A DNA stretch of 64,000 nucleotides, from contig CAZQRP010000018.1 in the NCBI GenBank assembly GCA_964596125.1, positions 4,245-68,244 on the forward strand. The letters run 5' to 3'. The DNA comes from an uncultured Dehalococcoidales bacterium (GTDB taxonomy: Bacteria > Chloroflexota > Dehalococcoidia > GIF9 > UBA5629). Both the position numbers and the translations under genes were made by a program. Below the pieces are notes generated by a model, which worked only from the letters and a program-made list of their open reading frames with translations, ran no database searches and had not been told where the DNA came from. Shown piece after piece: positions 1,136-15,221 of the stretch (positions are counted from its first letter, which is position 1; each line of letters opens with the position of its first letter).

Positions 1136-2041
1136 CTATTGGGTCACCTGTTGCGGAGAAATGCCGGCTGCCTGCAGGATATCTGGTACTACCTCTTCCT
1201 TACCTATCGCCATAATGTGGACTCCATCACATAGTGATTCCTTTTTCAGTGTGGCGACCATTCTGCCGGCAATTTCTATGCCTTTGTTGAGAGCTTCACC
1301 CTTGGGCGCACTTGCCAGTTCGTCAATTAAATTTTGAGGTACAAAGATACCGGGAACATTTTCTGTCATGTATTTTGCCATTCTGGCAGATACCAGGAGC
1401 ACGATTCCAGCCAGTATCTTGACTGGAAACCGGCGAGCATGCTGCATAAACCTGGCGAAGTTATCAAGGTCATAAATGGCCTGAGTCTGAAAGAATTCGG
1501 CTCCGGCTTCTACTTTCTTTTCAAACTTAATCAACTGTGGCTCTATTGGGTTCGCTTCAGGGGTGACTATAGCGCCGGCACAGAACTCAACAGCCCCATC
1601 AAGATCGTTTCCTCCCAGGTCTTTACCTGCCTCCATGAGCCGGACTGTCTCCAGTAACTGAAGGGAATCAAGATCAAAGACGCCTTTTGCTTCTTTGTGG
1701 TCGCCAACGGTGACTGCATCGCCCGTCAGGCAGAGGATATTTCGTATGTCTCTGGTATAGGCAAACAGAAGCTCAGCTTGAAGCGAAAGACGGTTGCGGT
1801 CGCGGCAGGTCATCTGTAAGATAGGTTCGCCACCCCTCTCTTTGATTGCCAGACATCCACCGATTGAAGGAAAGCGCATTACCGAGCTCTGGTGGTCAGT
1901 GACGTTCATAGCATCTACCTTGTCTTTAATGAGTTCAATATGGTGCCACATTTTTTCAATGTTTGTCCCTTTCGGTGGACCAATTTCGCTTGTGATGACA
2001 AATTTGCCAGAGTTAAGGGCTTCTTTAAAACGTGTTACCAT
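1136..2041 (-). CDS. metF: Methylenetetrahydrofolate reductase, acetogen-type MetF (copy 1)
   Basis: 301 aa. Family blocks GPPKG, NVTDHQ, QMTCRDRNR and CLTGD are present. AAGGAG lies 8 nt upstream of the ATG. The gene sits 16 nt downstream of metV. Confidence 0.9.
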   Translation of the reverse strand: MVTRFKEALNSGKFVITSEIGPPKGTNIEKMWHHIELIKDKVDAMNVTDHQSSVMRFPSIGGCLAIKERGGEPILQMTCRDRNRLSLQAELLFAYTRDIRNILCLTGDAVTVGDHKEAKGVFDLDSLQLLETVRLMEAGKDLGGNDLDGAVEFCAGAIVTPEANPIEPQLIKFEKKVEAGAEFFQTQAIYDLDNFARFMQHARRFPVKILAGIVLLVSARMAKYMTENVPGIFVPQNLIDELASAPKGEALNKGIEIAGRMVATLKKESLCDGVHIMAIGKEEVVPDILQAAGISPQQVTQ

Positions 2042-2057
2042 AGTATTTTCTCCTTAC

Positions 2058-2702
2058 TCAAGCGATTTTAATTTTCCTTGGTTTCGGTGCTGCCTGATAG
2101 TTTTTTGGGGGGAGATGTTTTCGCATTAAATTGAGCCTACCCTGGCTTTCCAGACGTTGATATATGAGAGTCCATGCACAGTCCTTTTCTTTGTCGACCT
2201 CGCACTTTCCATCATTTGTGCCACCGCAGGGGCCATTTAATAAGCTCTTATGGCATGCTGTGATCGGACATATTCCTGCCGTTTCTCCAAGGACGCATTG
2301 GCCGCATTGTGCACAGGTTTCGAGAAAGACACCGGGCTCATCCTCCATACCTATAAACAGGGTATCCTGCGCCGGGAAAATTGGCTTGTTGATATATGAG
2401 TTTGCCTTGAATACTCCCAGCGCACAGGACATAACTAAAATACAATTTGCATTCTTGATGGCGTCATTGTTTTTAGTGAAAGAAAGCTCTGTCATATCAT
2501 CGCAGGCTGTAGGAATAACCGTCCAGCCTGTTACCAGTTTACCTGAGTCTTGCAACCGCTGTTTCATTTCCAGTACCTCTTCTCGCCCGCCTGTTTTAGT
2601 CATAGTGGTACAGGTGCCACAGCCGATTATGTAGACTCTGTCAAGGCCTTCCAGTTGCTGCTGAATCTCATCAAAAGGCTTCTGTCTGGTAATAGATTTC
2701 AT
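2058..2702 (-). CDS. metV: MetV, Cys-rich zinc/Fe-S small subunit of MetFV methylene-THF reductase (copy 1)
   Basis: Cys motifs GCGTC, CAQCGQC, CPITAC and CGG..DGKCEV are present. The protein is alignable by eye with the second MetV at 13586. The start was moved to the internal ATG at 2700-2702, which has AAGGAGG 7 nt upstream; the track start is 2732. Confidence 0.85.
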   Translation of the reverse strand: MKSITRQKPFDEIQQQLEGLDRVYIIGCGTCTTMTKTGGREEVLEMKQRLQDSGKLVTGWTVIPTACDDMTELSFTKNNDAIKNANCILVMSCALGVFKANSYINKPIFPAQDTLFIGMEDEPGVFLETCAQCGQCVLGETAGICPITACHKSLLNGPCGGTNDGKCEVDKEKDCAWTLIYQRLESQGRLNLMRKHLPPKNYQAAPKPRKIKIA

Positions 2703-2762
2703 TCTGAAACCCTCCTTAACTAACTGATGCAATCCTTTCCAAAAGGCTATCCTCTGCTTTGT

Positions 2763-13571: not shown

Positions 13572-13585
13572 CGGAGTTAATTATT

Positions 13586-14239
13586 ATGATAACGGTTACT
13601 GAGCAAAAACCTTTTGAAGAAATTTTACAGAGTATGGAGCACTGTAAAGCAATATATCTTATCGGGTGCGGCACATGTCCTACCATGCTGCATACCGGTG
13701 GTAAAACTGAGGTGCTTGAAATGAAAGCTAAACTGGAAGAGGCAGGTAAGAAGGTTACCGGTTGGATGGTAATCCCCACTGCTTGCGATGATCTTACCAG
13801 GGATGCAATAGTAAAGAATGCTGAAGATAGCCAGGCTGCCGACTGTATTTTGATAATGTCATGTGCATTTGGGGTACAAATGGTTGGTAGCTGTACCGAT
13901 AGACGTGTTTATCCAGCACTTAACACATTATTTTTAGGGAAGGAAGAACCACTTGGAACAATTACTGAGTTATGTATGCAGTGCGGCAATTGTGTTCTGG
14001 ACCAGACCGCAGGCATATGTCCGGTGGTCAGTTGTGCTAAGGGACTATTTAATGGACCTTGTGGCGGATCGGTGGGAGGTAAATGTGAAGTGTCGCCGGA
14101 CACTCCTTGTGCTTGGCAATTAATAATTGACCGTCTTACTGCTCTAGGACAGCTAGATGAACTGGAGAAAATCCAGCCTATTAAGGATTGGAGTACCAGT
14201 AGCTCTGGAGGTCCCAGGAAAATAATCATACAGGGCTAG
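13586..14239 (+). CDS. metV: MetV small subunit (copy 2)
   Basis: 217 aa with GCGTCPTM, CMQCGNC, CPVVSC and CGG..GGKCEV. Paralogue of the gene at 2058-2702. Confidence 0.85.
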   Translation: MITVTEQKPFEEILQSMEHCKAIYLIGCGTCPTMLHTGGKTEVLEMKAKLEEAGKKVTGWMVIPTACDDLTRDAIVKNAEDSQAADCILIMSCAFGVQMVGSCTDRRVYPALNTLFLGKEEPLGTITELCMQCGNCVLDQTAGICPVVSCAKGLFNGPCGGSVGGKCEVSPDTPCAWQLIIDRLTALGQLDELEKIQPIKDWSTSSSGGPRKIIIQG

Positions 14240-14303
14240 TAGAGCCATTTGGAGGTTCAGTCTTATTACGGATGTAGTGCGAAACAGAACGGAGGCAGCA
14301 TTA

Positions 14304-15221
14304 ATGAAAGTGGGAACGAATCTGGAAAAGATTTTAGAAAGTGGAAGATTTGCAGTTACTACAGAAGCTGGTCCACCAAAAGGTACCAGTGCTGCGGTTG
14401 TACAAAAAAAAGGCGAATTACTTCGTAACTGCACTGATGCTGTTAATGTGACTGATAATCAGACCGCCGTTGTTCGTATGTCTAGTCTTGCTGGCTGCTT
14501 GCTTTTGAAGCAGCAGGGTATAGAACCGGTTATGCAAATGGTTGTCCGCGATAGGAATCGAATTGCTATTCAAAGTGATGTTTTAGCGGCGGTAGCCCTT
14601 GGCATAGGTAATATCCTATGCCTGTCAGGTGACCATCAAACCTTTGGTAATCATCCCTCTGCGAAAAGTGTTTTTGATATTGACTCGATTCAGCTAATAC
14701 AAACGCTGAAAAAGATGCGCGATGAGAAGAAATTCCTGAATGATGAAGATATCCAGGGCGAAGTTCCCCTATTCATCGGAGCCGCTGCCAATCCCTTTGC
14801 TGATCCGTTTGAATTCAGGGTAGTAAGGCTTGCAAAAAAAATCAAAGCAGGTGCTGACTTTATTCAAACGCAGGCAGTGTATGACATCACTAAATTTGCT
14901 AAGTGGATGGAGATGGTTACTGACAGGGGATTGGATAGGGAAACGCATATCCTTGCTGGTGTAATACCAATCCGGTCAGCAGGTATGGCTCGTTATATGA
15001 AAGACTATGTTGCTGGAGTCTATGTTCCAGATGAGATACTGACTAGACTTCAGCAGGCCGATAGTGCCAAGGAAGAGGGATTAAAAATTGTACTTGAGAT
15101 CATTGAGCAGTTGAAAGAGATCCCAGGGATTCACGGCGTTCATATAATGGCGGTTGGCTGGGAGGACATTGTTCCGGAACTAACGGAAAGGGCTGGACTA
15201 ATGCCCAGGCCTATATTGTAA
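14304..15221 (+). CDS. metF: Methylenetetrahydrofolate reductase MetF (copy 2)
   Basis: Family blocks GPPKG, NVTDNQ, QMVVRDRNR and CLSGD. Start chosen at ATG 14304 with GGAGG at 14291-14295; the track start at 14277 is a GTG without an RBS. Confidence 0.9.
   Translation: MKVGTNLEKILESGRFAVTTEAGPPKGTSAAVVQKKGELLRNCTDAVNVTDNQTAVVRMSSLAGCLLLKQQGIEPVMQMVVRDRNRIAIQSDVLAAVALGIGNILCLSGDHQTFGNHPSAKSVFDIDSIQLIQTLKKMRDEKKFLNDEDIQGEVPLFIGAAANPFADPFEFRVVRLAKKIKAGADFIQTQAVYDITKFAKWMEMVTDRGLDRETHILAGVIPIRSAGMARYMKDYVAGVYVPDEILTRLQQADSAKEEGLKIVLEIIEQLKEIPGIHGVHIMAVGWEDIVPELTERAGLMPRPIL

Follow-up and report, generated by a model that had tools for sequence, protein, structure and literature searches.

Why should one bacterial genome carry two methylene-tetrahydrofolate reductases (MTHFRs), each encoded directly behind homologues of NuoE, NuoF and NuoG, and from which donors would these enzymes draw their electrons? 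The question is raised by a stretch of 64,000 nucleotides (the window) on contig CAZQRP010000018.1 of an uncultured Dehalococcoidales bacterium, in which two divergent five-gene operons run G1-E1-F1-MetV1-MetF1 on the minus strand (operon 1) and G2-E2-F2-MetV2-MetF2 on the plus strand (operon 2). We hold with moderate confidence that these operons specify two distinct five-subunit MTHFRs of the MetFV X-type: operon 2 would encode a simple NADH-dependent form, and operon 1 an NADH/NADPH-linked form built on a modified core of the electron-bifurcating Bfu family.

The arrangement of nuoEFG-like genes in front of metFV has itself been described before. Yi et al. (2021; PMC8515935) found it in Dethiosulfatarculus sandiegensis and also in Desulfobacterales and Chloroflexi, named it X-type MTHFR, assigned its MetFV proteins to a separate phylogenetic group (III), and speculated on bifurcation for a type that they noted to be unstudied. 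What we add here is the occurrence of two structurally different subtypes in one genome. When we searched the literature for the biochemistry of a NuoEFG-MetFV enzyme, we found only this genomic remark; a survey of the Bfu family does not mention MetF or folate, and papers on Moorella caeni, NPL-UPA2, Hakuba Actinobacteria and Ca. Acetocimmeria contained nothing informative on such an enzyme. The original prediction, made from the DNA sequence of the window, had called this coupling mode uncharacterised; no characterised enzyme turned up in the literature searched, and no MetV homologue in a sequence search of the PDB, but the gene arrangement already had a name.

Two Divergent metV-metF Operons

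We scanned the open reading frames (ORFs) of the window with Pfam and NCBIfam profiles and compared the paralogue pairs by pairwise alignment. The genes of the two operons are as follows.

G1, 6308-9010, minus strand: 900 amino acids, BfuA/NuoG-like, with the domains Fer2_4, NADH-G_4Fe-4S_3, Fer4_Nqo3, Molybdop_Fe4S4, Molybdopterin and Molydop_binding
E1, 5827-6315, minus strand: 162 amino acids, NuoE/BfuC-like [2Fe-2S] subunit of thioredoxin fold (PF01257, 2Fe-2S_thioredx, E = 5.7e-48)
F1, 2763-5837, minus strand: 1024 amino acids as the longest ORF, probable ATG start at 5825
MetV1, 2058-2732, minus strand: iron-sulfur (FeS) subunit of a MetFV-type MTHFR (PF12225, DUF5981, E = 8e-37; NGPCGG motif), probable ATG start at 2702
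MetF1, 1136-2041, minus strand: catalytic flavoprotein subunit of MTHFR (PF02219, E = 1.5e-40)
G2, 11184-11861, plus strand: 225 amino acids, HoxU/NuoG-N-terminal-like connector with [2Fe-2S], His-ligated [4Fe-4S] and 2x[4Fe-4S] sites and no catalytic domain
E2, 11889-12335, plus strand: 148 amino acids, NuoE-like [2Fe-2S] subunit (PF01257, E = 4e-49; NCBIfam NuoE models)
F2, 12372-13571, plus strand: 399 amino acids, minimal NuoF with Complex1_51K, SLBB and NADH_4Fe-4S only, that is, an FMN/NADH site and one [4Fe-4S] cluster
MetV2, 13586-14239, plus strand: FeS subunit of the second MTHFR (PF12225, E = 6e-36; NGPCGG motif)
MetF2, 14277-15221, plus strand: catalytic subunit of the second MTHFR (PF02219, E = 1.4e-37)

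ORFs and Pfam domains agree with the gene order and the coordinates on which the original prediction had been built. The junction distances that it gave for the minus strand (an 8-nucleotide overlap between G1 and E1, then gaps of 1, 60 and 16 nucleotides) are correct when the ATG codons at 5825 and 2702 are taken as the starts of F1 and MetV1; we adopt these starts because the orthologue alignments begin at those residues. For MetF2, a public gene call (L161) of 305 amino acids implies a start near 14304. F1 shows the domain order partial 2Fe-2S_thioredx, Complex1_51K, SLBB, NADH_4Fe-4S, Fer4_20 and Pyr_redox_2, so that the description of operon 1 as the extended and operon 2 as the minimal version fits the domain content: F1 carries thioredoxin-like and GltD-like domains, and G2 consists of the NuoG N-terminal part and F2 of the NuoF core only. 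Among the NCBIfam models, E1 is also matched by those for NuoE and the gamma subunit of formate dehydrogenase (FDH), and G2 by the N-terminus of [FeFe]-hydrogenase A6 (220 bits) and by HoxU (198 bits).

Each subunit has a paralogue in the other operon, as had been proposed, and all five pairs are homologous at 36-51% identity: MetF1 and MetF2 share 41% (E = 7e-85), MetV1 and MetV2 51% (E = 6e-81), the F1 core and F2 44% (E = 7e-128), E1 and E2 36% (E = 2e-36), and the N-terminal 203 amino acids of G1 and G2 47% (E = 3e-63). The MetV and G-subunit motifs quoted in the original prediction are present in both copies. In either operon metV, with PF12225 and the NGPCGG motif defined by Yi et al. 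(PMC8515935), lies upstream of and adjoins metF (PF02219), and NuoE, NuoF and NuoG homologues stand immediately 5' of this pair. F1 and F2 both possess the NuoF core domains of BfuB (PF01512, PF10531, PF10589), and beside them are encoded the NuoE-like E1 and E2 and the FeS-domain proteins G1 and G2, the counterparts of BfuC and BfuA. The ORF and Pfam listing contains no ferredoxin gene in either operon. Predicted promoter and terminator sites did not rise above chance (35 sites against 28.7±5.2 expected, and 20 against 14.7±4.1).

Conservation of the Gene Order in Other Genomes

The original prediction had itself proposed a survey of metFV adjacency to nuoEFG-like genes as a check. We scanned species-level genomes with MetV2, which gave 25 operon-2-type loci (MetV identity 56-75%), and metagenomes with MetV1, which gave 80 operon-1-type loci (MetV identity 71-82%); the denominators below are the loci with enough flanking sequence. 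F1 was found directly upstream of MetV1 in 75 of 75 operon-1-type loci and MetF1 downstream of it in 76 of 76, so that MetV1 orthologues always lie between F1 and MetF1; E1 was kept in 44/44 and G1 in 40/40. In operon-2-type loci, F2 adjoined MetV2 in all 22 cases and G2 occupied the expected place in 18 of 19. A reverse test gave the same picture, since contigs selected through G1 or F2 homology, not through MetV, carry the same operons, and the whole divergent pair with the regulators between its halves recurs on L165/L166. Counting both operon types, the adjacency of NuoEFG-like genes and MetFV held in >100 independent loci; it is robustly conserved and extends beyond this one genome.

Operon-2-type loci are mostly labelled Dehalococcoidia/Dehalococcoidales, with single ones from Chloroflexota, Deltaproteobacteria and NPL-UPA2. 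MetV2 is 63-73% identical to its orthologues in Dehalococcoidia metagenome-assembled genomes (MAGs), and the closest named relatives of G1, F2 and MetV2 are proteins of Chloroflexota/Dehalococcoidia MAGs. The exact G1 and F2 sequences are on public record (P0001 and P0271; NCBI, and SRR14802574 in Logan), and G1 and F2 each have >120 clusters of relatives at 90% identity.

The NuoF-Like Subunits F2 and F1

Whether a NuoF-like subunit belongs to a bifurcating enzyme can be judged from its clusters. BfuB is defined by the NuoF core plus a C-terminal 4Fe-4S ferredoxin-type domain (IPR017896), which holds clusters B3/B4 and the ferredoxin site, and the His at the B2 site occurs in virtually all BfuB sequences and is missing in non-bifurcating homologues (PMC9304861). 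Such homologues are devoid of B2-B5, and deletion of B3/B4 abolished bifurcation in Thermoanaerobacter kivui HydABC (PMC11829005). In HydB of Acetomicrobium mobile the B2 ligands are C438, C476/T, H525, C531 and C536.

Alignment of F2 with 7t2r_B (HydB of A. mobile) and 7q4v_B sets in only at HydB residue 115, so that the N-terminal [2Fe-2S] domain is missing; at the B2 site, C438 has become Asp, C476 Ser and H525 Arg, and C531 and C536 are gone. F2 ends four residues past this Arg (its relatives end within about 12) and has no C-terminal 2x[4Fe-4S] domain. All 22 family members examined are truncated in the same way, with neither the N- nor the C-terminal domain and without the B2 Cys residues, and >120 F2-family database clusters have lengths of 393-409 amino acids. 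At the B2-site His position, Arg is found in F2 and in 17 of 22 family sequences, and His in 3. Judged by these losses of B2, B3, B4 and B5 features, the F2 family is not Bfu-like. E2F2G2 instead appears to resemble a HoxEFU/Nqo1-2-3N diaphorase, with MetVF standing where the catalytic partner would be. Since F2 has none of the features that define BfuB, and B3/B4 are needed for bifurcation, ferredoxin-coupled bifurcation of the Bfu type by operon 2 is unlikely; its product is most likely a plain NADH-dependent, ferredoxin-independent, non-bifurcating MTHFR.

F1 presents a different case. In a sequence search of the PDB, its residues 10-542 matched A. mobile HydB (7t2r_B) with 810 bits, compared to 424 bits for F2 against the same protein, and the F1 core reached 680-750 bits with further BfuBs of demonstrated bifurcation, compared to no more than 395 bits with Nqo1 and 368 bits with FdsB. 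F1 retains the four N-terminal Cys residues, the Cys ligands of the B1 [4Fe-4S] cluster and the full B2 set C/T/H/C/C. These ligand residues are kept, nearly all of them invariantly, in 53 family members (58-100% identity), and the B2 set was found in 53/53 (with Ser for Thr in 7). The characterisation of both modules as "Bfu/HydABC-type" in the original prediction is therefore apt for the F1 core and fails for F2.

The resemblance of F1 to BfuB stops at the C-terminus. Straight after the B2 Cys pair, in the slot of the ferredoxin-binding C-terminal domain, begins an NfnL/GltD-like domain with 2x[4Fe-4S], an FAD motif (GxGxxG) and an NADPH motif (GxGxxA plus YRR, seen as GGGNxA...YRR). No Fer4-type Pfam match was found in F1; Fer4_20 and Pyr_redox_2 follow the B2 Cys residues instead. 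This half of the protein (544-1021) aligns end to end with NfnA of Caldicellulosiruptor saccharolyticus (9bov_A, 102-567; about 412-415 bits), including the permuted C-terminal element RKxNFxE...RCLxC, and likewise end to end with the NfnL-like domain of Sporomusa ovata StnC. Its cluster and cofactor ligand residues, too, are conserved across the 53 family members. The NADPH domain takes the place of the ferredoxin-binding domain in 74 of 75 F1 loci. Taken together, E1, F1 and G1 thus possess every domain of NfnABC/Stn except B3/B4, and the NADPH module appears to have moved from subunit A onto the C-terminus of subunit B. Because an NADPH-binding domain replaces the ferredoxin-binding one, ferredoxin coupling in the Bfu manner is not predicted for operon 1, and the third partner is more likely to be NADP(H). 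Of the NAD(P)H- and ferredoxin-linked isoforms that had been envisaged, the wiring of MetFV to NuoEFG-like pyridine-nucleotide modules thus finds support, and the ferredoxin part, for which no binding domain is present, does not.

In one locus, L094 (1337-3190; Ga0209121_10022971), the order G>E>F>MetV comes with a canonical BfuB of 617 amino acids followed by a MetV1-type gene. This BfuB has two CxxCxxCxxxCP motifs, the mark of a 2x[4Fe-4S] C-terminal domain, and its core is 83% identical to the F1-type fusions. Ferredoxin-type and NADPH-type domains thus look like alternatives at one position among close relatives, and L094 would be a candidate for a fully Bfu-compliant MTHFR.

G1 as a Pseudo-Formate Dehydrogenase

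In G1, N-terminal [2Fe-2S], His-ligated [4Fe-4S] and 2x[4Fe-4S] sites are fused to a full FdhA-like molybdenum/tungsten-bis-pyranopterin guanine dinucleotide (Mo/W-bisPGD) fold. The protein passes the Fdh-alpha equivalog model TIGR01591 (710.6 bits against a cut-off of 666.25) and aligns over its full length with Rhodobacter capsulatus FdsA (6tg9_A, 597 bits). Catalysis by FDHs depends on U140/H141/R333 in Escherichia coli FdhH and on C386/H387/R587 in R. capsulatus FdsA. At the position of Cys386-His387, G1 has Tyr-Ser (RLYSSAS), and Gln replaces Arg587 (LRGQNNVQG has become LQRENNGQG). The same holds in 36 full-length orthologues: the selenocysteine (Sec)/Cys position is Tyr (His in one), the His position is Asn, Ser or Gly, and the Arg position is Gln in 36/36. 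In contrast, FdhA genes beside operon-2-type clusters in related MAGs have LRGQNNVQG and either Cys-His or a His preceded by an in-frame TGA (Sec).

Eleven true FDHs share 174 invariant positions in the Mo-domain, of which 125 are retained by the G1 clade; the 49 changed ones cluster mostly round the active site, several of them to clade-fixed residues, and 41 of 44 positions in the N-terminal FeS domains are kept. The Mo-domain is not decaying but still under purifying selection, with a mean identity of 72%. We therefore rejected a true FDH role for G1 despite its passing TIGR01591, as the Sec/Cys-His-Arg triad is replaced across the clade; G1 is predicted to be a pseudo-formate dehydrogenase with a remodelled active site. 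The "FDH-like" G1 with a molybdopterin-fold extension that had been predicted is indeed a full FdhA homologue, but not a working enzyme of that kind. A pterin-fold domain that is apparently non-catalytic for formate is known from NuoG, StnC and SfrA as well; G1 differs from NuoG and StnC in being far nearer to true FDHs and yet having Tyr, Asn/Ser and Gln at the Sec-Cys, His and Arg positions across its clade. With respect to FdsABG of R. capsulatus (6tg9/6tga), to whose FdsA G1 can be matched over its full length, E and F resemble FdsG and FdsB.

In public records, >120 clusters of the G1 clade (P0002-P0120) are named "formate dehydrogenase (NADP+) alpha subunit" or similar, with the triad missing. 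This naming is probably a systematic mis-annotation, and it bears on metabolic reconstructions that infer the use of formate.

Relationships of MetF and Exchange of the Electron-Input Modules

The deepest division in a neighbour-joining tree of the sampled MetFV-type MetF proteins separates MetF1 from MetF2: MetF1 groups with the Clostridium and Actinomycetes types, and MetF2 with those of Moorella, Desulfobacterota and Anaerolineae. Together with the disparate scores of F1 and F2 against BfuB (810 and 424 bits), this led us to reject the view that the two operons arose by a recent duplication; they are better read as ancient or independently assembled paralogues. The partners are not fixed to one another; G2E2F2 is paired with a MetF1-clade MetF in L025 and L026, and at least seven MAGs have an E-F(GltD)-FdhA(Cys) set directly upstream of G2. 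In this lineage, NuoEFG-like modules thus appear to be interchangeable cassettes for the input of electrons to MetVF and FdhA.

The seven Dehalococcoidia MAG loci L007, L009, L010, L015, L017, L021 and L023 (positions about 1-7650) carry additional genes 5' of an operon-2-type cluster and on the same strand, namely MetF1-like, DUF3786, nuoE, an F1-like NuoF-GltD fusion (58% identity) and a Cys-type FdhA, and so form an 11-gene methyl-branch redox supercluster. In L020 (5842-13055), a full-length FdhA with Sec (in-frame TGA) sits in the place of G2, directly 5' of a short E fragment, after which come an F2-like gene, MetV2, a kinase gene and MetF2. This hints at FDH and MTHFR working on one shared NuoF module, or else at an assembly or frameshift artefact in E. 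L169 (1-12622) has a canonical BfuB (650 amino acids, 80% identical to the L094 protein) in the order E>F>FdhA, with a cdh/acs CO-dehydrogenase/acetyl-CoA synthase cluster, acsE and DUF3786 immediately before it; a complete Wood-Ljungdahl cluster together with a Bfu-type FDH thus occurs in related organisms.

Predicted Electron Flow and Comparison With Known Systems

In the scheme that we favour, the NuoE/F/G-like module would take a hydride from a pyridine nucleotide, and single electrons would pass along the FeS chain to MetV and on to the MetF flavin, which would reduce methylene-tetrahydrofolate (methylene-THF); the reverse direction is conceivable as well. The operon-2 complex, with one NADH/FMN site and no ferredoxin-binding domain, would then act as an NADH:methylene-THF oxidoreductase. 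Electron transfer from NADH (-320 mV) to methylene-THF (-200 mV) is exergonic by itself, and a reduction independent of ferredoxin is the most parsimonious function for operon 2. Without MetVF, E2F2G2 would be a NADH dehydrogenase ending in a bare FeS wire, because G2 has no catalytic domain. The operon-1 complex would combine a Bfu-derived core (B1, B2 and B5 plus C1) with an NfnL/GltD-like FAD domain in place of the ferredoxin-binding one, and G1, the BfuA counterpart that has lost the formate triad, would serve as FeS conduit or scaffold. With the NADPH domain in F1 and G1 reduced to such a role, three hydride sites are expected, for NAD(H) at FMN, for NADP(H) at FAD and for folate at MetF, and operon 1 would tie the reduction of methylene-THF to both pyridine-nucleotide pools.

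The nearest described system is the X-type of Yi et al., which agrees in the nuoEFG homologues directly 5' of metV-metF and in the Chloroflexi host. It was presented as one kind and without domain analysis, whereas in the window a minimal module is found beside a second one that combines a Bfu core, an NADPH domain and a pseudo-FdhA. The nearest functional analogue of operon 2 is the NADH-dependent, non-bifurcating RnfC2-MetV-MetF of Acetobacterium woodii, in which MetVF is likewise joined to an FMN/NADH-binding FeS subunit of Complex1_51K fold; that subunit is a single RnfC-like protein, compared to three subunits (NuoE, NuoF and the NuoG N-terminus) here, and F1 and F2 reach only 43-44 bits on TIGR01945 (rnfC; cut-off 245.95). 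MetFV-HdrABC-MvhD of Moorella thermoacetica, whose second acceptor is still unknown in the literature, also links MetFV to a multi-subunit NADH-oxidising flavin/FeS module, and MetF2 belongs to the same MetF clade. The input module in the window is, however, NuoEFG-like; no hdrA/B/C or mvhD genes occur between positions 1 and 20324, and Moorella-type neighbours were seen only at distant MetV loci. With the Bfu family (HydABC and NfnABC/StnABC; 7t2r, 7q4v, 9bov, 8oh5, 9n5u) operon 1 shares the F1 core with B1, B2 and B5, a BfuC-like E1 and a BfuA-like G1. It departs from NfnABC/StnABC in that the NfnL/GltD-like domain is carried by B and not by A, where it displaces the C-terminal B3/B4 domain of BfuB, and from the whole family in the addition of MetVF as partner.

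Weighing the Explanations

That the E, F and G subunits associate with MetVF we infer solely from the synteny and from the fact that the modules have no other acceptor, and the donor specificity, direction and stoichiometry ascribed here to both complexes are predictions of the same kind. In favour of two five-subunit MTHFRs speak the tightly spaced or overlapping genes and the persistence of the MetVF adjacency while the modules are swapped (L020, L025, L026, L094). Several observations weigh on the other side. In S. ovata, stnABC directly adjoins metVF, and yet it purifies as a stand-alone transhydrogenase (PMC7483475), so that adjacency alone can mislead; Clostridium ljungdahlii MetFV accepts electrons from reduced ferredoxin by itself (PMC8515935). 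The gap between F1 and MetV1 (60 nucleotides, and up to about 190 in relatives) exceeds the G-E-F junctions. No fusion of MetV to NuoF or NuoG was present among the 150 best MetV representatives from a search of 1.84 billion (the fusions found were MetV-MetF, MetV-histidine kinase, Fer4-MetV and MetV-Rieske). There are no other Wood-Ljungdahl genes in the window, nor within 10 kb in relatives, and the Mo-domain of G1, being still constrained, could have a catalytic role that goes unrecognised. The S. ovata precedent, with the ferredoxin use of C. ljungdahlii MetFV, the wider gap and the missing fusions, keeps alive the possibility of mere co-location, under which the E/F/G proteins are autonomous and only co-transcribed with a stand-alone, ferredoxin-dependent MetFV as in C. 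ljungdahlii. Operon 1 would then provide a rearranged Stn/NfnABC-like NADH/NADPH (± ferredoxin) transhydrogenase, for which E1, F1 and G1 hold all domains save the C-terminal one of BfuB, and operon 2 a small NADH diaphorase. We rate this as unlikely but deserving of attention: the gene order is kept across loci, also where these were chosen through G1 or F2, E2F2G2 has no acceptor module of its own, F1 is devoid of the B3/B4 domain that Stn/Nfn need for the reduction of ferredoxin, and the MetFV proteins of this arrangement form their own phylogenetic group.

Quite improbable, in our estimation, is the view put forward in the original prediction that both complexes are Bfu-type bifurcating enzymes, coupling the oxidation of NADH to the reduction of methylene-THF and ferredoxin or running in reverse by confurcation. 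The closeness of the F1 core to bifurcating HydB/NfnB (810-680 bits), its intact B2 His/Cys site and N-terminal domain, and the canonical BfuB in the same gene order in L094 would suit it; the exergonic step from NADH to methylene-THF could in principle drive the reduction of ferredoxin, and Yi et al. speculated likewise. It founders on the F2 family, which has lost exactly those clusters that separate bifurcating from non-bifurcating homologues, on the effect of the B3/B4 deletion, on the domain replacement in F1, and on the missing ferredoxin gene. A reading of operon 1 as an FDH plus MTHFR cluster, with G1-E1-F1 as an NAD(P)+-dependent FDH that happens to be encoded with metVF, could appeal to the TIGR01591 and FdsA scores, to the name given to this clade in public records, and to the genuine E-F(GltD)-FdhA clusters that adjoin operon-2-type genes in related MAGs. 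The replaced triad in the 36 orthologues and the 49 altered positions make it very improbable indeed.

A further idea concerns operon 1 within the five-subunit reading, and it is one that we regard as speculative and rather unlikely. It derives from the exchange of a canonical domain (L094) for an NADPH domain (F1) on 83% identical cores: operon 1 might encode a Bfu-derived bifurcating enzyme in which NADP+ stands in ferredoxin's place as the low-potential acceptor. NADH would be oxidised at FMN/B1/C1, one branch would lead via G1, MetV and MetF to methylene-THF, and the other via the NfnL-like [4Fe-4S] pair and FAD to NADP+, so that 2 NADH + NADP+ + CH2-THF would yield 2 NAD+ + NADPH + CH3-THF, with the reverse confurcation operating in methyl oxidation.

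Regulators and Surroundings of the Operons

Genes for regulatory proteins accompany both operons, and the two response regulators that had been noted between them carry receiver domains by Pfam. The following features were recognised from their Pfam domains.

9096-9881, minus strand: two-receiver response regulator, immediately upstream of G1 and at the same place in L162 and L165/L166
10194-10847, minus strand: response regulator with receiver and LuxR/GerE domains, kept in L162 and L165/L166 with a GAF-HisKA_3 kinase
15241-15642, plus strand: receiver-only response regulator, immediately 3' of metF2, also in L001, L165 and L167
16133-16633, plus strand: cNMP-binding protein
16637-17080 and 17077-17466, minus strand: receiver-only proteins
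17570-18823, minus strand: GAF-HisKA kinase
19029-20324, minus strand: GAF-HisKA_3 kinase
36743-37735, minus strand: IS1595-family transposase (DDE_Tnp_IS1595 plus zinc ribbon), unrelated to the MTHFR operons, as are the features below
43956-45593, plus strand: CotH kinase-like protein
47840-48862, minus strand: caspase-domain (Peptidase_C14) protein
52555-55122, plus strand: large MalT-like TPR plus LuxR regulator
58999-60342, plus strand: AbiEii-type nucleotidyltransferase toxin gene, like the transposase a mobile or defence element

Equivalent kinases are found in relatives (L162, L164, L165/L166) at two sites, one separating the operons from each other and one separating metV2 from metF2. 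Most relatives have a PAS- or GAF-histidine kinase gene at the latter site (L001, 10667-11815; L165, 10995-12257; L167, 11891-13324); the window is without this insertion and has its kinases at 17570-20324. One or two receiver-only proteins follow metF2 in most relatives, and upstream of G1 stand a GAF-HisKA_3 kinase, a double-receiver protein and a regulator of the receiver-LuxR type. All of these components are present in the window. The conservation of two-component regulators at both operons suggests a condition-dependent use of the isoenzymes. In a marine Chloroflexi single-cell genome, Sewell et al. (2017) noted metVF in two sets that are not identical, and a two-component system that flanks metF.

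At 50% clustering, the top MetV2 representative, P0121 (527 amino acids), is a fusion of MetV with HisKA and HATPase_c. Along with the kinase insertions, this fusion suggests that an FeS domain of the MetV kind may have a second use as the input of a redox sensor. In L167 (6890-8740) and L168 (4625-6475), a gene for an aldehyde:ferredoxin oxidoreductase (AFOR_N/AFOR_C) lies 70 nucleotides upstream of G2 on the same strand; this neighbourhood was seen in one lineage, plus 7 similar places.

Implications for Chloroflexota Metabolism

If the bifurcation to NADP+ considered above were true, the free energy of the MTHFR step would be stored as transhydrogenation. It would also be the first flavin-based bifurcation with a second acceptor that is neither ferredoxin nor flavodoxin, which Buckel and Thauer (2018) described as the second acceptor "to date always" used. 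With its two operons, the genome offers a natural comparison of MetFV on a stripped NADH module with MetFV on a Bfu core in which one domain has been exchanged. Both forms are abundant in sediment Chloroflexota, and their mode of coupling is of consequence for how this major group of the subsurface balances carbon and redox.

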